Virus record (IMG/VR): IMGVR_UViG_3300032018_000003
Strand: one strand, 5' to 3'
Length of the DNA: 64,000 bases
Source of the DNA: a virus
Lineage: Duplodnaviria > Heunggongvirae > Uroviricota > Caudoviricetes
Shown piece by piece: positions 23,259 to 47,713 of the stretch. The stretch's first letter is position 1. The number at the start of each line of letters is the position of its first letter. The position numbers and the translations under genes were made by a program. The notes below the pieces were generated by a model. That model saw only the letters and a list, made by a program, of their open reading frames with translations. It did no database searches and was not told where the DNA came from.

Positions 23259-23623
23259 TCAGTGTCCCCATGTATTTTTTCTGCTATCTTTTTATTAAGT
23301 AATACGAATAATATTAGTACTACAATAATACTCAGTATACCGGAAACTGCTTTAACATTTGTAAATATATTTATTATACCATCTATTATTGTAAATATAA
23401 TACCTGGAATTAATATAGCAAATATAAGAGCCAAAATTTTTGCACCAATAACTGTGTCCCAATCTGAATTATGTGTTATACTTTTTATTATAAAATAATA
23501 TATAGTTTCACAAATAATAAGTGTTATTATTGCATATACCCACCAATACTGATGCATTCCTATAGAAAAATCTATACCATCTGGAGTAAACATTAAATTT
23601 AATACATATTGTTTCCATACCAT
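23255..23623 (-). CDS. multi-pass membrane protein (122 aa)
   Basis: Hydrophobic helices. Overlaps its neighbour by ATGA. Confidence 0.35.
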   Translation of the reverse strand: MVWKQYVLNLMFTPDGIDFSIGMHQYWWVYAIITLIICETIYYFIIKSITHNSDWDTVIGAKILALIFAILIPGIIFTIIDGIINIFTNVKAVSGILSIIVVLILFVLLNKKIAEKIHGDTE

Positions 23624-24009
23624 TATATCATTCCTCTCAAAAATCTTCTACTACTCGTCCGTATAACAATATATAATAAAATAAAGATAGCGAATACAGT
23701 GCCATAATTGTTTAATACCCAATCTAATACACCATACGTTCCATCAACTACTCGCGAACTTGTAGTATAACTATCTCCTTGATTTTTATTTGTATAATCA
23801 TACACACGAGACTCTTCTTGCGGTTTATTTATATACATAATTATAAGTGTAATAAATATTATAACCAATAAAACCAATGCTAAATAAAACCATTTAGTTA
23901 TTTTTGGTTTTACTTCGTCGTCTAGTCTTTTGTTTTGTTTTATTTGGTTCATCAGTTGATTTCGGAATGTCCGTGTTAAAATAGTAACTTGGTGGTTGGT
24001 TTTCATCAT
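23623..24009 (-). CDS. membrane protein (128 aa)
   Basis: Two transmembrane segments. Confidence 0.35.
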   Translation of the reverse strand: MMKTNHQVTILTRTFRNQLMNQIKQNKRLDDEVKPKITKWFYLALVLLVIIFITLIIMYINKPQEESRVYDYTNKNQGDSYTTSSRVVDGTYGVLDWVLNNYGTVFAIFILLYIVIRTSSRRFLRGMI

Positions 24010-24173
24010 TTAAATCCTCAGTAAATTCATTATATACTTTATCTTCTTTCTTTTTAAGTTTCATTATTATTGGTATTAACCATTTCAATAATAAATATAT
24101 TAATGGCAAACATAAAAATATTAAAGAAAATAAAAAAAATTTACTCCTTAATAATACTAGTGGGTTAGGCATC

Positions 24174-25148
24174 TTAATTCACCGATACATTTCCTATGTT
24201 TGCACCAGTGCCCATGTTCATTATCATACCCATAGAATCTCCTGTTACCCATTGTGGATAAGTTCCTTTCCATGTTGCTCGCATCATATCAATATAATTA
24301 TTCTGTACCATAAGTGGAGTAAGCTCGTTTTTCTTTAATGCAAGTGCTTGTGCTTCTGCTTCTCCTTTAATTAAAATTGATTTTGCACTTGCTTGTGCTT
24401 CAAGTTCAATCTTCTTAGCATCTGCCTCGTATGTTGCAATTTGTCGTACCTTATTACTTTCTGCTTCTCCCTTAGCAGCTTCAATTTGTCTTAATGCTTC
24501 TTGTTTTTGGTATTCTGCTTCTTGCGCTTTAGATAAAGCTTGTTGTTCAAATACTTTTTTACTTTCAAGAGCGTTCTGAAACTCTATACTATAACCAATA
24601 TTAGAAATTACTACATTATCTAATGTAAGATAGTCTTTTGGAAAGTTTGCTTTAATTTGTGCTATCGCTTTCTCTTTAAGTTCTTCACGTTTCTCGTAAA
24701 GGTTCTTTGAATCGTATTGCGCAGTTACTGTTTTGAATGCTTCAATTACGATACCTTGAATGTTTAATACTACTGGTAAATCTTTATCTACGCCTACTTT
24801 ACTATAAGCATTAACTACATTCTCGCCATTAGTTTTAAAATTGATTTGAATACTAGCATATACTTTCTGTCCTTCTTTATCTGGTGCAGAGTTTGCATCA
24901 TCGATTGTCATGTCCATACGTTTAGTTCTTAAATCGTATTCTTCTACGTGTACAAACGGTGACATGAATTGCCAACCACTTACCATCGTTCCTTTTAATA
25001 CACCCATATCATTTACTACTCCAATATGTGTCGCGTCAACTGTTTTAAAACTTGCTAATCCTACAAAAAACAAGATTAATGCTATTACTATAAATATTCC
25101 TACTACAATTCCTGTTACTGTACTTTGTCCTTTTTTATTCATTTTCAT
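24174..25148 (-). CDS. SPFH/band-7 (stomatin/HflK/prohibitin-like) membrane protein (324 aa)
   Basis: N-terminal transmembrane segment, then a PHB-like core GVVNDMGVLKGTMVSGWQFMSPFVHVEEYDLR, then an Ala/Glu-rich coiled coil. Confidence 0.65.
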   Translation of the reverse strand: MKMNKKGQSTVTGIVVGIFIVIALILFFVGLASFKTVDATHIGVVNDMGVLKGTMVSGWQFMSPFVHVEEYDLRTKRMDMTIDDANSAPDKEGQKVYASIQINFKTNGENVVNAYSKVGVDKDLPVVLNIQGIVIEAFKTVTAQYDSKNLYEKREELKEKAIAQIKANFPKDYLTLDNVVISNIGYSIEFQNALESKKVFEQQALSKAQEAEYQKQEALRQIEAAKGEAESNKVRQIATYEADAKKIELEAQASAKSILIKGEAEAQALALKKNELTPLMVQNNYIDMMRATWKGTYPQWVTGDSMGMIMNMGTGANIGNVSVN

Positions 25149-25157
25149 TCATCTCCT

Positions 25158-25577
25158 TCAACTATATTTCTTATATACTCGTACTGCTAAACACATTCCA
25201 AATATAAATATAAATATTCCTAATAAAAATGTAAATGTTTTAGATACATACGACTGCCAGTTTGGATCGGTTCGTACATCAGAATAAGTTAATACTTCTA
25301 AATATTGATCTCCAGTATATCTACATTCTACTATTTTTGGATCTTTTAATTGTTCTGGTGTACACTCGTGTATAATAAACTTATCTATAGCTTTTTCATC
25401 TGATGTTATTACACTATAAAAAAGTAATCCTGCTAAAAACGTCATACATAAAAAAACTAGTAATGCTAATGGCATTACTTTACGTATATGTATATACTCA
25501 ATTTCATGTACACATACTTGTTTTCTTGCTTCTGAGAACATGTCTTCTTTCTGTTTGTTTTTTTTATTCATTTTCAT
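25158..25577 (-). CDS. membrane protein sharing MKMNKK start with SPFH gene (139 aa)
   Basis: Two transmembrane segments. A duplicated roughly 30-bp start region occurs at 25131-25160 and 25560-25590. Confidence 0.35.
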   Translation of the reverse strand: MKMNKKNKQKEDMFSEARKQVCVHEIEYIHIRKVMPLALLVFLCMTFLAGLLFYSVITSDEKAIDKFIIHECTPEQLKDPKIVECRYTGDQYLEVLTYSDVRTDPNWQSYVSKTFTFLLGIFIFIFGMCLAVRVYKKYS

Positions 25578-25828
25578 TCATCTCCATATTTTATTGGTTT
25601 ACAAATATCTAAACAGTTATCTGTAAATTTTCTGTTAAACTTAAAGTCTTCACATTTGTAAATACATTCATCATAAGTTGTTACATTAGAAATTAATATT
25701 TCTTTTAATATGTCGTAGTTACTACTCACACAATTTTGTGGTTCTTTGTTTTCATATACTAATATTATTGATATAGCTAACAGTATTAGTATTGTTATAC
25801 ACACATATAAATTTTGATTTTCGCCCAT
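25574..25828 (-). CDS. type-II membrane Cys-rich small protein (84 aa)
   Basis: Signal anchor plus 6 Cys. Confidence 0.35.
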   Translation of the reverse strand: MGENQNLYVCITILILLAISIILVYENKEPQNCVSSNYDILKEILISNVTTYDECIYKCEDFKFNRKFTDNCLDICKPIKYGDE

Positions 25829-26059
25829 AATAAACCTTTATACTATTGGTGTTTATATAAGTTACGTTTCTAATTTTTATTCTCTAACAAAATCCACATG
25901 GTCCACCATTCGTACAATTTGAATAATATTGTTGACAACCTAATGCCTGGTTTATACTATATTGAATTATAAAATGTGCTATTACGTTTATCAAAATAAC
26001 AATACCTATAAGAAGACAAAAATATAATAATGTTACTTTTAAGTCTTTATTCATAATTA

Positions 26060-27385
26060 TCAATATTCAAATATGTTTTTCTTAATCTGTGGTTTAATAA
26101 AATAACTTAACTCACTCCACACTCCACTCATATCAATATCCGATATTGTAAAGTTACGGTCTTTAAATTCATCTAATGTACATAGTTTTATACTATTACC
26201 GACGCCCACACCTCTAGTGTTGGGGATAAGAAAGTGTATTCCTGGACCATATTTTTTAGTTATCTGCGCCTGAATTCCACCTAAAGAATTCGAATAATGT
26301 TCTATTTTCTTTACACTTTTTCTCATACACATAAGAGTTGTGTCTTTTTCTAATAGTTCTAATATAATGTTTTTTAAATAAGTTTTACTAAATTTAACTA
26401 TTCCCTTTTCTACTATTTGAGGTACTAAGTAATCCCAAAAAAGTTTTCTAGATAAAGGAGATGTTGATTTTTTTCTTATACCGAGATTTTTTATGACTAA
26501 AGCGTCTTTGGGGTCTTTAAAAATTCCTTTTTTTACATATATATAATTTTTTTGAAGAAGTCCAAACTCATGTTTATTTTTCTGGTCATCTTCGTCTAAA
26601 TCAAATTCGATTTTATTTTTTTTGTTGTCTCCTTTAAAGAAAAACAAATGTTTAATTTCACACTCTAATTCAAAATCAAATGTTGTTTGAGGAAACGGAA
26701 CTGTACTTTTAATATAGTCTATAATTTGTTGTTTGACTTTTAACAATCTTTCAGTGTCCATATAATAATCTAGTATGTATAACGAATCTGTATCAGTATA
26801 TGCAACATCATAACCATTCTCTTTAAACACTTGTCTTGCGTATTTTACCCATTGTTCCCCTAATGAAGTACAATCCTGTGCTGCAGTCATATCATATAAT
26901 AATATAAATGCAGGGTTGTCAGAAACTCCGAAGCTCGTATTTAAGCATATCTTAAACGTGTATTCAAGCGGGTCTACTTTTTTACTTAGTTCTAAATATT
27001 CCTTTACTAACTCTTCTGTTAATACTATTTCTTTTAATTCTAAATCTTTAACGTCTTTTAAATTAATTGTATATATAACTTTACCAATATATTTATCTGC
27101 CTTTTTCATACTAACTACTTTCTTTTCTTCTACTAATACAAATTTTCGTTTATAATAATTTCTTTGATAAAACCATTTACGTTGTAGTTTAGCAACTATA
27201 CCCATTTCATCAGTATAATAAACGCCGCTAACTTTCCATACCCCTCCACCATTCCATGTGGGTCTATTATTAAAATCAAACTCTTTCTTTCTATTTAATA
27301 ATGCGGCTTGAATATATACGTGTGGATATAGAGAAGTATAATCTAATAATATTATATTATATTTTGATTTGTCTATAGTTTCCAT
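26060..27385 (-). CDS. polB: family B DNA polymerase, polymerase-domain fragment (441 aa)
   Basis: Motif A LLDYTSLYPH and motif C YTDTDS are present. It begins immediately after the point where the exonuclease-fragment ORF ends. Confidence 0.85.
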   Translation of the reverse strand: METIDKSKYNIILLDYTSLYPHVYIQAALLNRKKEFDFNNRPTWNGGGVWKVSGVYYTDEMGIVAKLQRKWFYQRNYYKRKFVLVEEKKVVSMKKADKYIGKVIYTINLKDVKDLELKEIVLTEELVKEYLELSKKVDPLEYTFKICLNTSFGVSDNPAFILLYDMTAAQDCTSLGEQWVKYARQVFKENGYDVAYTDTDSLYILDYYMDTERLLKVKQQIIDYIKSTVPFPQTTFDFELECEIKHLFFFKGDNKKNKIEFDLDEDDQKNKHEFGLLQKNYIYVKKGIFKDPKDALVIKNLGIRKKSTSPLSRKLFWDYLVPQIVEKGIVKFSKTYLKNIILELLEKDTTLMCMRKSVKKIEHYSNSLGGIQAQITKKYGPGIHFLIPNTRGVGVGNSIKLCTLDEFKDRNFTISDIDMSGVWSELSYFIKPQIKKNIFEY

Positions 27386-27389
27386 TTTA

Positions 27390-27752
27390 TTACCAACATC
27401 TCATTATAGGATAATACATTATTTTATTAGTAATCAACATAGAGTTTTCATACCACGTCATATTTCTTTTTCCTATATATTCTATTTTTATAAAAGAACA
27501 ATCTAATTTAACATTAAATTTATAAGTATCATTAAAAACACAATAACCATCATTCTCATAATATACTGTTGTGTTTTCGTTCATGTCGTGCATAAAATTA
27601 CAAAGAGTGTCGTTTTTATAAACTAACACGCTGTTTGCTCCAACAAACATTCCATATGATGTACCCATATTATAAATTATTAAAAACAATATAATCATTA
27701 ACAACCAAAACAATATAGTCTTTATTTTATTTATTTTAATCTGTTGTAACAT
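27390..27752 (-). CDS. small type-II membrane Cys protein inserted between polB fragments (120 aa)
   Basis: MLQQIKINK start plus a transmembrane segment. It is a paralog of 27736..28029. Confidence 0.45.
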   Translation of the reverse strand: MLQQIKINKIKTILFWLLMIILFLIIYNMGTSYGMFVGANSVLVYKNDTLCNFMHDMNENTTVYYENDGYCVFNDTYKFNVKLDCSFIKIEYIGKRNMTWYENSMLITNKIMYYPIMRCW

Positions 27753-28029
27753 TATTAACCTCTAAATATTCTTTTGCTTTATTAAAATTATATTTATTAG
27801 AATAACTATATTCACCTTCTATAGATATATTTACACACGTAAAACTATCATAAAGAATAACATCGTTTGTTTTATAATTATAATAACCTTTATAATTACA
27901 AAAATCTTCTGCGGTTGTTAAATCTTCATATATTGACATCCCCATTAAAATAGGTCCACCAACTATACACATTGAAATTATTAATGTAAAATAATCTATT
28001 TCTCCTTTTTTATTTTTAATCTGTTGCAT
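27736..28029 (-). CDS. small type-II membrane Cys protein inserted between polB fragments (97 aa)
   Basis: MQQIKNKKGE start plus a transmembrane segment. It is a paralog of 27390..27752. Confidence 0.45.
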   Translation of the reverse strand: MQQIKNKKGEIDYFTLIISMCIVGGPILMGMSIYEDLTTAEDFCNYKGYYNYKTNDVILYDSFTCVNISIEGEYSYSNKYNFNKAKEYLEVNNVTTD

Positions 28030-28783
28030 GGAACTCTTCCCCGGTAGGATAACTTACATACCCACCACTAATTTTCTCTTCACTCTCATCTTCACCACTA
28101 TCTCCAAATTTATCAGGATACTTTGGTGTCCATCCTAATGAATAACAAATAACTTTATATACAAAACTTGCTGCACTTGCAGTCAAATAAGTTTTTCTAT
28201 TAATATCATCTTCAGGTACGAAATTTTTAAACACACTAAAATAATCTTCAATAAACTCATACAATTTTTTAGTTACTTCTATATCTCTATTAAGATACTC
28301 GCGCATTGTTTTAAGTTCTTCGTTGGTCCATTGTTTTTTATTAAACAAATTCTTATCAACATGTATCTTAGAACTTTCTTCATCTACTAAATGTAATGTC
28401 TTAGTAATATAATCCAAACTAAATTCCATTAGGAGGTCTTTTAACATACCATCTTTAACTTTCATAATTATTGCTCTGTCAACAATTACGTTTCTTAAAT
28501 CAACATATACTTTATTATAAAATTTAATCCCGTGTCGTTTAAGAACATTATTATCATAACCAGGATTATCTTTCTTACCTTCAATATTGAACCCCACGAT
28601 TACTCTGTGCGCATTAATAACCTTTTGTACCTCTGACAAATCTGTTAATATATATGGTTTCCCTGTCTTATAACTATAACAACCAAACAATCGGAACTCA
28701 TCGTTCTCTGCATCGGGCATTCCCTTAGTCGGTGTATATGTTTCAATGTCATATACTAAAACGTCTTTGTCAATGTCTACCAT
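28016..28783 (-). CDS. polB: family B DNA polymerase, 3'-5' exonuclease-domain fragment (255 aa)
   Basis: Exo I YDIETY, Exo II GFNIE..YDNNVL and Exo III YLNRD are present. It ends with the pre-motif-A sequence GGYVSYPTGE. Confidence 0.8.
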   Translation of the reverse strand: MVDIDKDVLVYDIETYTPTKGMPDAENDEFRLFGCYSYKTGKPYILTDLSEVQKVINAHRVIVGFNIEGKKDNPGYDNNVLKRHGIKFYNKVYVDLRNVIVDRAIIMKVKDGMLKDLLMEFSLDYITKTLHLVDEESSKIHVDKNLFNKKQWTNEELKTMREYLNRDIEVTKKLYEFIEDYFSVFKNFVPEDDINRKTYLTASAASFVYKVICYSLGWTPKYPDKFGDSGEDESEEKISGGYVSYPTGEEFHATD

Positions 28784-28959
28784 TTTTTTGACTCCTTATC
28801 AAAATTAAATATTATATTTTGTTTTATTTTTTCTTCCCTTTCTTTATATTCTTTATCTGACATAATTACTATATGATGCGGCGCATTATTCGGAAAAGAC
28901 TTATCCATAACCATCAACGATCGTTTATTTTCATTAGTTATGTTATTCATTGTAATCCC

Positions 28960-29187
28960 CTATTCTTTATCGTTACCATATTCATAAAAACAATAAAACG
29001 AACAAAATACAAAAAATAAATTTAATAAAAAGAAAGGGTTCCAAGTACTAGTACTTTGTATTAAATTACCTGTATATAATAACCCCATAATATTTGCTAT
29101 TAATATCATCCCCCAGAAAGATTTTGTTATTGTTTTTGGTATTTTCATTAATGATTTCTCCACAACGTATGTACTAATCCTAAACAT
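28960..29187 (-). CDS. small membrane protein (75 aa)
   Basis: Hydrophobic helices. Confidence 0.3.
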   Translation of the reverse strand: MFRISTYVVEKSLMKIPKTITKSFWGMILIANIMGLLYTGNLIQSTSTWNPFFLLNLFFVFCSFYCFYEYGNDKE

Positions 29188-29307
29188 ATTAATATTATTC
29201 CTAACGTTCTAACCCAACCACCAATATGTTTACCAAACACATCCATTATTACTGGTATAACAAAACAAAAAATTCCTATAAAGAATAATGGACTTATACT
29301 TGCCATA

Positions 29308-29517
29308 CTATTCGCCTTCGTTTAAAAAACTTGGAATTTTTTTAAAAGAATTATTACAAATGACACATTGTGAATGTTTCAATCTACCATTATATTTAAA
29401 ATCTGTGCTCTTATTACACATGATACAAAAAAGTTTTCTATTATACTTAAACGTTTTTGCCATGCTTTTTTGATACTGTTGTCCTACTGTTAATTTTGTC
29501 ATGTTCATCACCATCAT
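29308..29517 (-). CDS. small zinc-ribbon protein (69 aa, start probably internal MTKLTV)
   Basis: Carries CIMCNKS...CVICNNS. Confidence 0.4.
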   Translation of the reverse strand: MMVMNMTKLTVGQQYQKSMAKTFKYNRKLFCIMCNKSTDFKYNGRLKHSQCVICNNSFKKIPSFLNEGE

Positions 29518-29932
29518 TATTAGTCATACTTTTCATTGTTTTATTAAATACTGTATTAATAATAACCCCTGCGGTAACTGTTGCTGCAATAATCGCAGTC
29601 ATCTCGCTAATTGTTTTTAATAATAATAATCGTCTATTGTTTTTAATAATAATAATCGTTTAAACAACTGTTCCTCGTCTTTTGTAAAAATGTTACTCTT
29701 TAACATTGAATTCAATTCTACCAAAATTAATTCATCTAATAAAAATAAATATTTGTTTTCTTCTTCCGTTTTCATATTAATCCTCTCTCCTCTTTAATTT
29801 TTGTTTGCATACTTTCAGCAAACCTTTTTCTAAATTCTAAATATTCGTCTTTAAGTTTAATTTCGTTTATTATTACTTCTGCAATTTCTCCAGTAACTAC
29901 ACACTGAAATAAATTATATTTCATATCATCGT

Positions 29933-31138
29933 TCATTTCGATTCCCCCTTAAACATACTCTTAAATATTTTTGCTGCTACACTAACTGTCCAACCATTTC
30001 CTGCTAGATGATATAAATGACTTTTTGCTATACCTTCTATAATAATCTCATCTCTTAAAAAACCCTGTAACCTAAAACATTCTTTTGGTGTTAAACGTCT
30101 TATTCTTTGGTTTGTTATTAATACCTCTTTCGGTTCTCCTGCTTGTAAACATCTATGAACATTACTATCTTGTGGAATGTATGTTGTTAAAGGACGATCT
30201 TCTTTCCCATGTTTTAAATGATATATATCTATTTGTTGAGGTTCGTTCTTTTCTAACTCTAATTTTTTTGCTACATCCAACGCTATATTAAAATCGCGTG
30301 TCACTGTATTAAGTAATATTTTATTATCGGCTGCAACGGTACATGTTAATGTTGGACTTATACCATTAACACTATATATTCTTTCTCTATCAAATTCCGC
30401 ATCCATATTTAATTGTACTATTTCGTCAACAAAACACGGTACATCACCACCGACTTTTAATGTTCTACACGGGTTATTTATATCTATAGGTTGTCTTTCT
30501 TTAAAATTACTTTTATTTATACCATTGATTGCTCGTTCAGATAAAAAATAACTTTCATCAACTTCTTTTTCTAATACGTCTTTAAGAAATAATTTAAGTG
30601 GTTCTTTGTTTGGAAATTGAAATTCCATAAAGTCCCATGTGCCTAATTTACATACAAACCAAACACGTTCCCTATTTTGTGGTACACCGTAATCTTTACT
30701 ATTTAATACTTTATGACAAACATCGTAACCTATTTCTCTTAAACAATGTATCATCTTTTCAAACGTTCTACCATCGTCAATACTTAATAGTCCCTTTACG
30801 TTTTCTAATAACATATATTTAGGTTTCTTTACTTTTGCTATTCTTAACACGTCCCAAAATAAAGTTCCTCTAGGATCAAGTTCACCTAAACGTTTTCCAC
30901 TTATAGAAAAACTCTGACAACAAAACCCTGCTGTAAGTAAATTAAAGTCTGGTACTTCTTCCGGTACTATTTTACTTATGTCACCATAGTTTTTTATTTT
31001 ACCATGATTTAATTCATGAATCTTTATTGCATGTTTATCTATCTCTGATATACCTACACATTTAAATGGAAGTCCTAATTGTTTTAATGCAAACAAATCT
31101 GCACCATAACCGGAAAATGTACTAAAGACTTCTATCAT
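29933..31138 (-). CDS. DNA (cytosine-5)-methyltransferase (401 aa)
   Basis: Motif I FSGYGA, a PCQ-type motif GFCCQSFS and ENVKGL are present. Confidence 0.85.
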   Translation of the reverse strand: MIEVFSTFSGYGADLFALKQLGLPFKCVGISEIDKHAIKIHELNHGKIKNYGDISKIVPEEVPDFNLLTAGFCCQSFSISGKRLGELDPRGTLFWDVLRIAKVKKPKYMLLENVKGLLSIDDGRTFEKMIHCLREIGYDVCHKVLNSKDYGVPQNRERVWFVCKLGTWDFMEFQFPNKEPLKLFLKDVLEKEVDESYFLSERAINGINKSNFKERQPIDINNPCRTLKVGGDVPCFVDEIVQLNMDAEFDRERIYSVNGISPTLTCTVAADNKILLNTVTRDFNIALDVAKKLELEKNEPQQIDIYHLKHGKEDRPLTTYIPQDSNVHRCLQAGEPKEVLITNQRIRRLTPKECFRLQGFLRDEIIIEGIAKSHLYHLAGNGWTVSVAAKIFKSMFKGESK

Positions 31139-32978: not shown

Positions 32979-35681
32979 CTAAAAATCTTCTTTAATTCCT
33001 ATCTGTACTCCAAATAAGGAGGATTCTTTTTTTGGTTCTTCTATTACTTTATTATTTTCTTTTTTTGGTTCTATAGCTTTAAATCTAACGTTTCTATAAT
33101 AATAATCTCGTTGTCTATCCACCATCGTATTTTTATAATCTACTCTTAATATATTTCTTAAATGGTAATTAAAGGTGTTTACTGTATCTATTTCTAAATC
33201 GTTTTCTCCACAAAATTGTGCGTATGCGTCTAATAACATATCTCTTTCAATACTACTTCCACTACAAAATTCAAGACGTCCAGAAATATATTTTTCCGAA
33301 CTACACCCATATATCTTAAATTTGTTTGTTATATCTTCTATAGAATCATTATAACTAAACCCGTTTTGATTTAATATTCTTTTTAATCCTTCTATTGCCC
33401 AATTTAATATTCCTGACATCTCATCTTTACTAAATAAAATGTCGTTTATTACATCGGGATTTCCTTTTTTAATAAGTTTTTTTTCGTCTTCGTTTACTTT
33501 TAATATCTCACTATCGTAATTTTTTTTATCATAAAATTTATATTTAAATTCTATTATCTTAAATCTTAAAAAAGAAGCCTTTGTTTTATCGTCTGGGTCT
33601 GGCATGGTGTTTAAAGATATAATATGCTTTGCAAATGGAGTAAAATCAAGAGATGATAAAAATTTTCTTTTTGCTGATTGCGTGTCTCCCCCCGTTAATT
33701 TTTTAATAGTATTCATATTAATTTTTTTATTTTTATCTACCTCAGAACTTATATTAATATATTTAGAATGTAATTCAGATAATTCAAAAGCATCACTTGC
33801 TAAATTAGATAATTCGAAATTTTTATAGTTTGTTTTACCAAACATTTTCTGAATTATTTTTAAAAATTTACCTTTTCCGTTTCTACCTGAACCAATAAGC
33901 ATAAGAAATTTATCAAATTTAGGAGTTCTGTGCAGACAATAACCAACAAACTCTTGTAAACTTATTTTGTCTTCTATGTTTTGTTTTATATCAATTCCGC
34001 GTTCATCTTTACTTGGCCCAATAACACTATCTAAAAATATTTGAAATTTGTTGTATTCTTTTTCTGAATTGTATGAAACATTTAATCTACTAAAAAATTT
34101 ATATTTTGGATTATAATTAATTAACTTATTTTGCTTTAAATCGTATAAACCGTTTCTTAATGGTATTAAATAACTCGGTTCGTCTGCAAACAATATTTTA
34201 GAATCTGTTTTTGTTGATTCTATATGTTCCATTATTTTATTAAATTTTAAATCTGTATAAGAATTAATTACTGTATTATCATCTAATATATCGTTTTCAA
34301 ACATATCGTAAACTATTTTTTTTAATGTATCTCTTCCATTATTAATATATATACCATTAGTATAAACATATACTTCTGAATGACTTTCGTTTTTTGTAAT
34401 ATAAATTTTATAATTATCTAATATATAATTAACTGCTAAATCCACCCCTTTAGATATTACTATAGGACTTTTACTTCTCATTAAAAAATGTATATCACGT
34501 AACACTTGTGTTCTTTCTTCTTCGTTTTTATGACTTAAATTTAATGGTATTGGTTTTAAATCATTGTGTAGTGCAATAGTTTCTTCAATGTATTCTTTTT
34601 TCATGTCGTCATCTAAAGACAAAAAATATTCTTTATCTTCTTCTTCTGTTATATGAGAATAAAACTCGTCAAATATATCGTTAATGTTTTTTTCTGCCCA
34701 TTTAATTTTTTTCCCAACACATTCTATTTTCCAATGGTCACATATCTCTTGCATTGCGGTTTTAAATGTTATTTCTTCTCCTGAATCTACTTTATGTTTT
34801 GCCTGCCACAACGAAAAAATATTATATCCTTTTGCTTCATGATAACAGTATGCAACCTCGTCATTTATATGAAGGTTTCCTTTTCCATGCATATCATGTA
34901 ATGGACATTTAACTACGGTGTTATTAGATACATCTGTCCCCATATATTCTAAAACATCTTTTATTTTTACTTTCTCACATACCGCCTGCATAAAAGGATT
35001 TAGTTTTTTTATTTTATTTTCTTCTTCTTTTATTTTATCTTCGGTGTTTAATTCAAATGTTTTTTCTAATTCGTTTAATGTTAAATTTGATATTTCACAG
35101 TCTTTAACAATTTCATATCTTCTTCCTGTACCTCTATTAATAGAATTTGGTCCAACAACTTGAGACCCCCTTCCTTGTAAATCTACAAGGGTTGTTCTTT
35201 TTCCATCAACTTCGATAGATACGGGTTTTTTCTTAAATTCTTTATCTAAAAAATAATAATAATGATATAACCCACTTCCACCGGTTTTTACTATAAGAGT
35301 GTCTTTTAAAATTTTTTCTTTTTCTTTTTGATATGTTTCCTCATCAAAATCTATAACTACAAGATTATTAACCCCACATAAAACTCCATAATTATTAACT
35401 TTTATATGATTTAATAGTTTATTATCATCATATCTATAATTAGTACAAAAATCTTTTAAAAATCTTATCTTTACTTTTTTGTTTTCTTTCTTTTCTGAAT
35501 CTAAAATTTCAATAATGTTTTGGTCTTCAAGACGTTGTAATGCAGTTTTATATCCTGTTGTTACTATATCCCCTGTTTTAAATCCGTTTTCTTTGGTATA
35601 AAATAATTCTATTGGTGTTTTTTCATTCAATAGAACGAATCTAAACATATCTTTTTGTAGAACTTTAGGTATTTGAATCAT
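32979..35681 (-). CDS. D5-like primase-helicase (900 aa)
   Basis: A C-terminal SF3-type P-loop LIGSGRNGKGKFL is present. There is also a Zn-binding CPLHDMHGKGNLHINDEVAYCYH segment and an N-terminal prim-pol-like VVIDFDEE. Confidence 0.7.
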   Translation of the reverse strand: MIQIPKVLQKDMFRFVLLNEKTPIELFYTKENGFKTGDIVTTGYKTALQRLEDQNIIEILDSEKKENKKVKIRFLKDFCTNYRYDDNKLLNHIKVNNYGVLCGVNNLVVIDFDEETYQKEKEKILKDTLIVKTGGSGLYHYYYFLDKEFKKKPVSIEVDGKRTTLVDLQGRGSQVVGPNSINRGTGRRYEIVKDCEISNLTLNELEKTFELNTEDKIKEEENKIKKLNPFMQAVCEKVKIKDVLEYMGTDVSNNTVVKCPLHDMHGKGNLHINDEVAYCYHEAKGYNIFSLWQAKHKVDSGEEITFKTAMQEICDHWKIECVGKKIKWAEKNINDIFDEFYSHITEEEDKEYFLSLDDDMKKEYIEETIALHNDLKPIPLNLSHKNEEERTQVLRDIHFLMRSKSPIVISKGVDLAVNYILDNYKIYITKNESHSEVYVYTNGIYINNGRDTLKKIVYDMFENDILDDNTVINSYTDLKFNKIMEHIESTKTDSKILFADEPSYLIPLRNGLYDLKQNKLINYNPKYKFFSRLNVSYNSEKEYNKFQIFLDSVIGPSKDERGIDIKQNIEDKISLQEFVGYCLHRTPKFDKFLMLIGSGRNGKGKFLKIIQKMFGKTNYKNFELSNLASDAFELSELHSKYINISSEVDKNKKINMNTIKKLTGGDTQSAKRKFLSSLDFTPFAKHIISLNTMPDPDDKTKASFLRFKIIEFKYKFYDKKNYDSEILKVNEDEKKLIKKGNPDVINDILFSKDEMSGILNWAIEGLKRILNQNGFSYNDSIEDITNKFKIYGCSSEKYISGRLEFCSGSSIERDMLLDAYAQFCGENDLEIDTVNTFNYHLRNILRVDYKNTMVDRQRDYYYRNVRFKAIEPKKENNKVIEEPKKESSLFGVQIGIKEDF

Positions 35682-45775: not shown

Positions 45776-46480
45776 ATGAAGATTGACAAAACAGAGATAG
45801 TAAACTTTTTTAAGAAAATTAGAATGGATAAAGACGAAAAGATTGAAGAAGCAAAATTTAACTTTGATACTAATGGACTTAAAGTATTAGCAACGTCTAA
45901 TACTAAATCAACACAAGTGAGTGCATTATTAAAACCTGCTGCATTTAAAGAATATGAAAAAATTGGTGTAGTAGCAATAAACGATCTTACTAATGTTCAA
46001 GGAGTATTTGATAGATTTAAAGGAGTTATTACAATTAAAAAAAGTGGTAATTGTATGATAGTGAATGGGGACAACAAAAAAGTTGATATTGAATTGGTAA
46101 GCGAACAGTTTCTTGTAAATGAAAAAGAACCCCAAGGATTAGTTTTTGAGAACGAAATTATTATTGATAGTACAACATTAAAAGAAATTGTTGCAGACAT
46201 TGAACTTAATAAAGAAGCAGAATTAATTGTTACTACAGGAGATAAGGTAGTTAAATTTAGTAATACCGGAAAATATAAATTTGAGACTACACTTGAAGCA
46301 CCATTATGTAAAGTAGGAACTGTAGTAAAATTCGGTCAAGCATTTATTGATGCAACAAAAAATCTTAATGGTATGTTGAAACTACATGTAGGAACAAATT
46401 ATCCATGTAAGATTGTTGAAGAGTCTGATATAAGTACAATAAGTATAATTATTGCACCGCGTATAGCCGACTCAGAGTGA
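45776..46480 (+). CDS. candidate sliding clamp (PCNA-like), weak (234 aa)
   Basis: The size and alternating hydrophobic pattern fit PCNA, and it lies directly upstream of the RFC-like gene. No strict motif was seen. Confidence 0.35.
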   Translation: MKIDKTEIVNFFKKIRMDKDEKIEEAKFNFDTNGLKVLATSNTKSTQVSALLKPAAFKEYEKIGVVAINDLTNVQGVFDRFKGVITIKKSGNCMIVNGDNKKVDIELVSEQFLVNEKEPQGLVFENEIIIDSTTLKEIVADIELNKEAELIVTTGDKVVKFSNTGKYKFETTLEAPLCKVGTVVKFGQAFIDATKNLNGMLKLHVGTNYPCKIVEESDISTISIIIAPRIADSE

Positions 46481-46816: not shown

Positions 46817-47713
46817 ATGACATTCAACCCTAAAGATATTGTTTGGACCGAGAAATATAGACCCAAATTAGTAAACGAAATTGTTGGAGATTTTAAAGAT
46901 AAGATAAAAGAGTATCTTAAAAATTCTGATAACATGCCACATTTTTTATTTTACTCACGTACTCCTGGAACCGGGAAAACAACAATTGTAAAAGCAATCA
47001 TTAATGAACTTGGTTGTGATAGTATAACAATAAACAGTTCCGATGATAGAGGTATAGAAGCAATAAGAGAAAAGGTTAAAGAGTTTGCTAAATCTAAAAG
47101 TAGTAATGGTAATAGGCGTTGTGTATTCTTAGACGAAATTGATGGTGCGACTCGTCCTGCACAAGATGCTCTTCGTAATATAATGGAGACATACGCAAGT
47201 AACGCATTTTTTTGCCTCACATGTAATAATATAAATAAGGTTTCGGATGCGATACAATCACGTTGTGTATGTATAAATTTCGCATACCCAAATAGAGACG
47301 AGATAAAAAAATATCTTGAAATGATATGTGAAAAAGAAAATTTAAATTATACTGATGAAGGACTTGATGAAATATTAAAATATAATTATCCTAGTATAAG
47401 AAATTGTGTTATATGTTTACAAGACTTGAAAACCGAAAGTAAAGATATAACAAAAGAAAATATTAAACCTATTAATAGTATGTTTGAAGAAATGTGGCAG
47501 AAAATAAAAAACAAAGAGTGGAAGGATATTAAAATTATTATAATGGAGAGTACACTTGACGCGAGAGAACTTAATACTTATTTTTGGGAGAAAGCATTAG
47601 AAGAAGAAAATATTAAAATTATTCAAACATGTTGTAGAAATGAAAAGGATATTAGTACTGGTGCAGATGCTAATATTATAGTAGTAACAAGTTTAATTGA
47701 GATGGTAAAATGA
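46817..47713 (+). CDS. rfc: replication factor C small-subunit-like clamp loader (298 aa)
   Basis: WTEKYRP box, P-loop RTPGTGKTT, Walker B FLDEIDG and SRC motif QSRCV. Confidence 0.8.
   Translation: MTFNPKDIVWTEKYRPKLVNEIVGDFKDKIKEYLKNSDNMPHFLFYSRTPGTGKTTIVKAIINELGCDSITINSSDDRGIEAIREKVKEFAKSKSSNGNRRCVFLDEIDGATRPAQDALRNIMETYASNAFFCLTCNNINKVSDAIQSRCVCINFAYPNRDEIKKYLEMICEKENLNYTDEGLDEILKYNYPSIRNCVICLQDLKTESKDITKENIKPINSMFEEMWQKIKNKEWKDIKIIIMESTLDARELNTYFWEKALEEENIKIIQTCCRNEKDISTGADANIIVVTSLIEMVK

Follow-up and report, generated by a model that had tools for sequence, protein, structure and literature searches.

A family B DNA polymerase gene from an uncultivated virus, divided one strand before motif A by two small predicted membrane-protein genes

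Split genes for family B DNA polymerases (PolB) are already documented in T4-like phages, RM378, magroviruses and Methanothermobacter. Seven natural splits have been listed alongside engineered ones, located in the fingers for five T4-like phages, in the palm for Methanothermobacter and, as a prediction, at the boundary between the N-terminal domain and the palm for Rhodothermus phage RM378 (PMC3061061), and group B magroviruses have split polymerase genes with a break described as lying within the catalytic domain (PMC5434244). The split in the Methanobacteriales has been proposed to stem from erratic intein excision; that of Methanothermobacter thermautotrophicus lies approximately 83 residues C-terminal to the Pfu fingers split, with the two genes 85 kb apart (PMC4104785). 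For Aeromonas phage 25, the split gp43A and gp43B are reported to co-purify and to be active (Petrov, Ratnayaka & Karam 2010, as summarised in PMC2988022). Here we analyse a polB gene on a 64,000-nucleotide (nt) stretch of viral DNA (IMG/VR record IMGVR_UViG_3300032018_000003), referred to below as the window, along which all positions are counted. The gene is divided into an exonuclease open reading frame (exo ORF) and a polymerase ORF (pol ORF) by an insert holding two small genes, ORF-B and ORF-A. We propose that this arrangement probably encodes a functional two-subunit PolB, that its four genes form a translationally coupled operon, and that the two genes lodged at the break are cargo. 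The locus is made up as follows.

28016..28783, minus strand: exo ORF, gene for the putative N-terminal PolB subunit (255 aa; 3'-5' exonuclease domain)
27736..28029, minus strand: ORF-B (97 aa; Lys-rich N-tail, one hydrophobic helix, small Cys-containing C-terminal part)
27390..27752, minus strand: ORF-A (120 aa; member of a family of small single-pass membrane proteins)
26060..27385, minus strand: pol ORF, gene for the putative C-terminal PolB subunit (441 aa)
27386..28027, minus strand: segment inserted relative to intact relatives (about 642 nt, 22.7% GC)

The exo ORF contains Exo I (D12/E14), Exo II (N66 and Y76-D77) and Exo III (Y163 and D167), together with an acidic, low-confidence linker (around residues 220-237) and the first palm strand (GGYVSYP..EFH), and ends in ...KISGGYVSYPTGEEFHATD and a stop. 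The pol ORF starts METIDKSKYNIILLDYTSLYPH and contains the motif A strand (NIILLDYTSLYPH), with motif A itself (DYTSLYPH) uninterrupted, motif B (KICLNTSFG), motif C (YTDTDS), KKNYIY and the thumb. In an 85-sequence alignment, Exo I-III and motifs A, B and C all fall on invariant or near-invariant columns. Pfam DNA_pol_B matches the pol ORF at E = 2.4e-4, just under the gathering score, and the family profile matches an archaeal PolB in the PDB at E = 1.3e-24. Exonuclease motifs, polymerase motifs and the exonuclease-palm-fingers-thumb fold are thus all present, as in family B polymerases of the RNA/DNA-primed type. The pol ORF closes with a conserved ..KNIFEY tail (..KPQIKKNIFEY, window 26060-26095), and a C-terminus of the form ..K(N/D)IF(D/E)(Y/F) is kept across the family. 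This tail resembles the clamp-binding tail of RB69 gp43 (..SLFDMFDF) and fits a clamp-dependent replicase.

The pol half has relatives in 124 homolog clusters, the closest being P0002 (705 aa, 69% identity), P0003 (685 aa) and P0004 (690 aa), each a single intact protein. Aligned with 84 intact homologs, the two window halves abut exactly: ...ISGGYVSYPTGEEFH followed by ATD and a stop on the exo side, and METIDKSK followed by YNIILLDYTSLYPH on the pol side, correspond to ...GEEFHD followed by NIYLKDFISMYPH in P0003. No conserved segment is missing between them, and the tails at the break are very short, with 3 residues on the exo half and 8 on the pol half. The insert starts directly past the conserved His252 codon (CAT, 28030-28028) and runs to the pol ATG; the distance from exo stop to pol ATG is 630 nt, and the pol frame meets a stop 5 codons 5' of its ATG. 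A preliminary description, made from the sequence alone, had reported the four ORFs, the three Exo motifs, a 630-bp interruption and this in-frame stop, and had placed the fragment ends close together in an intact PolB. All of this is borne out, and the decayed pseudogene it had envisaged, lacking a substantial conserved segment, is not what the alignment shows.

An AlphaFold2 model of the joined halves, built as a single artificial fused chain, has a predicted local distance difference test (pLDDT) score of 92.2 and a predicted template modelling (pTM) score of 0.88. Foldseek matches this model to the KOD/Tgo/9N and RB69 polymerases over the full length of these (E ~1e-23), which supports the preliminary suggestion of a polymerase made of two subunits, as do the intact, conserved halves and the natural precedents. 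In the model, strand 250-252 is followed by loop 253-264 (block pLDDT ~70) and then by strand 265-271 with the motif-A Asp, so that the break falls in the hairpin-turn loop right before the motif-A strand. This would leave the exo subunit ending one strand into the palm, past the acidic linker. The loop region varies in length within the family: counted from GG to the SLYP Ser, 64 of 82 homologs have 22 aa and a further 16 have 23-26 aa, and P0002 (39 aa) and P0052 (34 aa) are the only longer ones; the joined window protein has 33 aa. P0002 and P0052 are the nearest relatives of the two splits in this family that involve no intein, those of the window and of contigs L018/L088 (see below), respectively. 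A tblastn search of 50,697 phage genomes with the pol half returned T4-like polymerases only, at 24-26% identity, and pattern scans of IMG/VR and JGI metagenome contigs with a single protein gave no match.

The main rival to a functional two-subunit enzyme is that the two genes inactivated polB recently, leaving the halves as non-functional, still undecayed relics while another polymerase, encoded in the remaining 33 kb of the genome, by a helper or by the host, carries out replication. We consider this unlikely, and the condition of the two halves is the first reason. The joined protein retains 134 of the 141 columns that are at least 90% conserved (95%), which ranks it 26th lowest of 91 and better than its intact sister P0002. 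Its identities to the outgroups P0003 and P0004 (60.4% and 57.5%) are similar to those of P0002 (61.8% and 57.7%), which indicates no acceleration in rate. Both halves are fully open in a genome of 27% GC, while the same frame across the insert has 35 stops, and the pol ORF opens with a clean ATG that is placed exactly in the loop and tightly coupled to the preceding stop. These comparisons speak against decay of the polymerase halves. In favour of inactivation, the event is not datable from sequence conservation. The nearest relative available as DNA is ~60% identical as protein, so synonymous sites are saturated.

An artefact of assembly or sequencing, either a chimeric join or a misassembled insert, would also produce an apparently divided gene, and the locus does come from a metagenomic contig known from assembled sequence. 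The pol protein is recorded on a contig of 97,032 bp, and an independent ENA assembly of 96,932 bp (ERZ27247706), with a different start point, shows no difference from the window across the locus (24313-30385, 6,073 nt). Together with the precise ORF boundaries and the continuous coding signal, this agreement leaves next to no probability for an artefact. The different start points of the two assemblies indicate that the source is a viral genome of ~97 kb, which is probably circular or terminally redundant.

Both ORFs of the insert appear to be genuine genes. Only in the annotated frame does their codon usage look coding (0.64 and 0.30 bits per codon, compared with 0.47 and 0.45 for exo and pol, which are likewise coding-like in frame), and each has a Lys-rich tail followed by a hydrophobic N-terminal helix, along with Cys residues and N-x-S/T sequons, in keeping with the membrane-like character first ascribed to them. 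An exhaustive HMMER search alone recovered relatives of ORF-A, which are invisible to word-index searches: 26 full-length homologs of 107-132 aa, with E values down to 7e-14. They share a transmembrane helix, G-x3-G-x3-G, N-x-S/T-x-C, four conserved Cys and a C-terminal YYP..C-W, and ORF-A scores 1.7e-34 against a hidden Markov model (HMM) from which the window sequence was left out. The ORF-A model has a pLDDT of 91.5 with no fold match below E = 0.6 in the PDB or BFVD, and ORF-A belongs to no Pfam family. Judged by sequence, ORF-A belongs to a conserved but undescribed family of small, predicted membrane proteins with four cysteines in uncultivated viruses. Other loci of this family are found at L008 483-860, L009 1553-1900 and L011 8001-8363. 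For ORF-B, no homologs were found by word-index search or in ~80 related loci, and no exhaustive HMMER run was made.

ORF-A and ORF-B had been taken for paralogs on account of their similar starts. This does not hold, as BLASTP aligns them at E = 4, the ORF-A family HMM does not find ORF-B at E <= 1 and hhalign gives a probability of 0.1%. The M(L)QQIK start that they share is instead explained by a direct repeat in the DNA, which lies over both start codons.

28006..28026, minus strand: copy 1 of the direct repeat, CAACAGATTAAAAATAAAAAA; encodes the start of ORF-B in one frame and the end of exo, stop included, in another
27726..27746, minus strand: copy 2 of the direct repeat, CAACAGATTAAAATAAATAAA; encodes the start of ORF-A in one frame and the end of ORF-B, stop included, in another

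The copies are 21 nt long and 86% identical, with an exact 13-mer (CAACAGATTAAAA); read in the other frame, they supply the ATD and stop of exo and the TTD and stop of ORF-B. The repeat brackets the ORF-B module, which fits a stepwise insertion with duplication of the stop/start junction. Together with host-like codon usage, such a two-step history suggests that the insert is not brand new, and this also counts against a recent inactivation. Two further resemblances were discarded: an inverted repeat of 14 nt, with its arms close to the two ends of the insert, is attributable to chance, as it belongs to a set of 15 comparable AT-rich pairs within 3.2 kb, and the likeness of the pol start METIDK to the ORF-A and ORF-B starts is too weak to call.

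A repeat of this kind flanking the ORF-B module resembles a target duplication, and the insert might therefore be read as an autonomous, endonuclease-free mobile element of a new kind that targets this polB loop. ORF-A homologs adjoin tyrosine integrases, lying just downstream, in two of the three contexts examined, and the same loop is disrupted in another lineage, both of which suit such a reading. Nevertheless we think it very unlikely. The insert has no nuclease, recombinase or terminal inverted repeat above chance, no homolog of ORF-A or ORF-B occurs in or near polB in the ~80 related loci, relatives of ORF-A lie in unrelated gene contexts (some beside JAB/ThiF genes), and the other split in this loop carries no insert. 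Neither ORF has a nuclease or intein domain in Pfam or PHROGs, in agreement with the preliminary description, and a nuclease domain is absent from every member of the ORF-A family. The occurrence of the ORF-A family in unrelated contexts, without endonuclease or intein, favours a cargo locus that has colonised polB, which was another of the three options first put forward.

The third of those options, a novel intron, finds no support, and it forms part of a wider alternative in which the insert is removed or bypassed to give one polypeptide, whether by a group I/II or other intron, by protein splicing or by ribosomal bypass. The exo and pol ORFs do share a reading frame (732 nt between motif anchors), and relatives use protein splicing at a nearby site. 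However, a cmscan of 25800-29200 against Rfam at E <= 10 yielded no intron or other RNA family (a lone snoRNA match at E = 2.6 is attributed to chance), and no catalytic RNA structure and no LAGLIDADG, HNH, GIY-YIG, PD-(D/E)XK or related nuclease domain marks the insert as a group I/II intron or a homing endonuclease gene. Coding-like ORFs occupy the entire insert, ORF-A being a genuine conserved protein. Intein blocks are absent, motif A is unbroken in the pol ORF, and the fragment ends (...EEFHATD and METIDKSKYNIILLDYTSLYPH) lack intein residues, with no Cys/Ser after the N-terminal part and no HN before S/T/C; the halves must for this reason stay separate. We know of no precedent for a ribosomal hop of 640 nt. 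Removal or bypass of the insert is thus extremely improbable.

The T4-like Aeromonas phages 44RR and 25 offer a close viral comparison. Their PolB is encoded by two adjacent same-strand cistrons with halves expected, and for phage 25 reported, to associate into an active enzyme, and foreign DNA may sit between the cistrons (PMC2988022, PMC3061061). The gp43A of 44RR (498 aa) contains SFDLTSLYPS and ends ...KKILASRGVKLDH, and gp43B (391 aa) contains KILINSLYG, with a 49-nt spacer between them. The 44RR break therefore lies between motifs A and B, in the fingers, whereas that of the window precedes motif A. The T4-like spacer consists of 49 nt of untranslated sequence, with or without a seg-type homing endonuclease and a group I intron; the window has two membrane-protein genes and neither of these elements. 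With no break in the fingers and no untranslated intercistronic spacer, the window gene is not a split of the T4 type.

A division at the level of domains, into an exonuclease-only protein and a polymerase protein, is shared with RM378 (PMC3061061), whose p024 is a 313-aa exonuclease-only ORF with Exo I-III. This ORF stops before the pre-motif-A strand, an adjacent gene for the polymerase part is not annotated, and there is no cargo operon; RM378 also belongs to another PolB lineage, with no tblastn match to the window pol half at E <= 1e-3. Among archaea and archaeal viruses, M. thermautotrophicus and the group B magroviruses have a natural two-gene PolB without protein splicing that is interpreted as functional (PMC3061061, PMC4104785, PMC5434244); no membrane-protein genes are reported between their halves, unlike in the window. 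The split-intein PolB of Nanoarchaeum equitans, and those of relatives of the window protein, are broken near or in motif A into two ORFs, the halves of which carry intein pieces that the window halves lack, so that the window gene is not of the split-intein class. A further parallel is the NrdA of Aeh1, an essential replication-related enzyme split by inserted DNA, in which two polypeptides reassemble (PMC3045599). There the insert is the mobE homing endonuclease gene and element-derived tails mediate assembly (PMC3045599), in contrast to the membrane-protein insert and the 3- and 8-residue tails of the window. What sets the window gene apart from all of these splits is where it is broken, one strand ahead of motif A, and what its insert contains.

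Other members of the same PolB family are also broken close to this site. At least 12 relatives are divided by a split intein 14 residues downstream of the window break. Relatives with such an intein at motif A include L003 2139-5239, L004 6301-9203, L043, L048, L056, L062 and L069, and the proteins P0016, P0032, P0050, P0051, P0060, P0069, P0072, P0076, P0086, P0091 and P0102. Their junctions read ..LDFN/CLPEN.. on the N side and ..THN/SLYPH on the C side, with a Pfam Intein_splicing match. The stop of the intein N-piece is preceded by a zinc ribbon together with a PD-(D/E)XK or endonuclease-I-like domain; the C-piece, of ~38 aa, always starts MVKI or MVGI (e.g. MVKIKSI...) and belongs to an overlapping ORF in a different frame. 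No contiguous version of this motif-A intein was seen among the relatives, and the intein-bearing halves are presumably ligated by trans-splicing.

A second, independent split without an intein occurs in the same loop as that of the window and has no inserted gene (L088 5001-7032, ENA ERZ27301260 k141_558052; L018/L089 905-2933, NCBI SKIH01000052.1). The exo ORF (256 aa) and pol ORF (425 aa; MQTINKQYKNLIIQMDFSSLYPH) of L088 have 17 nt in common, and the split is seen in two contigs, L088 and L089, that differ by 2 single-nucleotide polymorphisms. The exo ORF ends ..AIEVEDANNK and a stop, the pol ORF starts MQTINKQYKNLII.., and the pol frame is +1 relative to exo. Programmed frameshifting is an alternative to true fission here, as the product of a +1 shift at AAA-TAA would look intact (..ANNKKQYKNLII..). 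A further candidate, P0029 (437 aa), was rejected as a split; it is cut by the end of its contig and reads in frame through the loop. The existence of a second lineage split in the same loop is one more point against recent inactivation in the window. Taken together, the intein splits, the L088 split and the window split indicate that this 15-residue region tolerates separation repeatedly.

Expression signals at the locus are consistent with a single operon. Shine-Dalgarno-like motifs precede 56 of 70 genes, against a background of 10.8%; exo has AAGGAG and ORF-A has GAGGT. The ORFs overlap, with the ORF-B ATG 14 nt inside exo and the ORF-A ATG 17 nt inside ORF-B, and the pol ATG stands 1 nt past the TAATAA double stop of ORF-A with no Shine-Dalgarno motif of its own, which makes termination-reinitiation probable. 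No minus-strand terminator was found within the locus, and promoter-like sites are at chance level.

The reading that we favour, a functional two-subunit PolB, can be set out on this basis. The four cistrons, exo, ORF-B, ORF-A and pol, would be co-transcribed as one operon, with polB broken in the beta-hairpin turn before the motif-A strand, in a surface loop that is expanded in this clade only. The 255-aa subunit would comprise the proofreading exonuclease domain and the first palm strand, and the 441-aa subunit everything from the strand with the catalytic Asp onward, namely the remainder of the palm together with fingers, thumb and clamp-binding-like tail. Translation would be coupled along the operon through the 14- and 17-nt overlaps, with pol probably reached by termination-reinitiation at TAATAAAATG. 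The subunits may then assemble non-covalently, by strand complementation and the normal exo-palm-thumb interface, into what we infer to be an active enzyme. ORF-A and ORF-B would be accessory cargo, encoding small membrane-anchored and probably extracytoplasmic proteins rather than parts of a homing element. The 21-nt junction duplication suggests that the cargo genes arrived singly, through illegitimate or short-homology recombination, and that they did so at a stop/start junction which may already have been present.

Several points weigh against this reading. The arrangement is found in one genome only among the 124 homolog clusters, which makes a recent and still undecayed inactivation compatible with the sequence, and the pol cistron without a Shine-Dalgarno motif likewise suits inactivation. 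The short tails include no evident added dimerisation module like that of Aeh1 NrdA (PMC3045599). The structural model represents one fused chain and not a complex. Finally, the 33 kb of the genome that lie outside the window could encode another polymerase.

Within the window, replication genes are found at the following positions.

32979-35681: primase-polymerase/D5-type helicase
45776-46480 and 46817-47713: PCNA-like gene adjoining an RFC-type clamp loader

No other DNA polymerase was found among the window ORFs of at least 150 aa, in 64 kb. The presence of a clamp loader, a PCNA-like gene and a primase-helicase but no second polymerase in the window suggests that the split polymerase is likely to be needed, and again argues against its inactivation. 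Further genes encode a C5 DNA methylase, an SPFH protein, a nuclease-helicase and additional helicases; no tRNA genes were found in the window. The DNA is AT-rich throughout (25-33% GC per 2-kb window). At ~36 kb the genes switch from the minus to the plus strand, and the sign of the GC skew flips together with the coding strand at ~36000. Two divergent blocks of genes meet at this junction, which may represent a replication origin or a region of divergent promoters.

Small ORFs of a general type similar to those in the insert are common here: approximately 28 of 115 small coding-strand ORFs in the window have an N-terminal hydrophobic helix, mostly with cysteines. Three of them lie directly 3' of pol, before the SPFH gene (23623-26054), and the P0002 contig (ENA ERZ21989587, 12,468 bp) is syntenic, with the same order of polB, three small genes and a Band_7 gene. 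In related contigs, a LAGLIDADG intein lies within a clamp-loader gene, and 7-deazaguanine-type DNA-modification genes (TGT-like, PTPS/QueD, GTP cyclohydrolase I) occur near polB; the coordinates of these features together are L005 1-511, 1869-3517 and 8193-9380 and L006 4827-6014. Some PolB relatives are on contigs of metagenome-assembled genomes (MAGs) labelled Thermotogaceae, Planctomycetaceae, archaeon, Bacilli, Paceibacterota and Rhodobacter (L015-L021). These are most likely mis-binned viral contigs, and with six unrelated taxa the MAG labels carry no host information.

A bolder interpretation, and in our view a decidedly unlikely one, is that the pre-motif-A hairpin loop is a recurrent site of both fission and landing with three independent uses (division by a split intein to which an endonuclease is fused, a plain overlap of stop and start, and insertion of two membrane-protein genes), and that the window arrangement is adaptive and not just tolerated. 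If so, the catalytic subunit would be made only when the membrane-protein genes 5' of it are translated, through termination-reinitiation, and the stoichiometry, timing or replisome localisation of the polymerase would be linked to the ORF-A and ORF-B proteins. Natural splits mark where PolB can be cut and still work, which is of use in the engineering of split or conditionally assembled polymerases and informs how essential genes survive invasion by foreign DNA. What the present locus adds is a break one strand from the catalytic Asp of motif A, with an insert that is neither intein, intron nor homing endonuclease, in a PolB family that displays three different solutions within ~15 residues.

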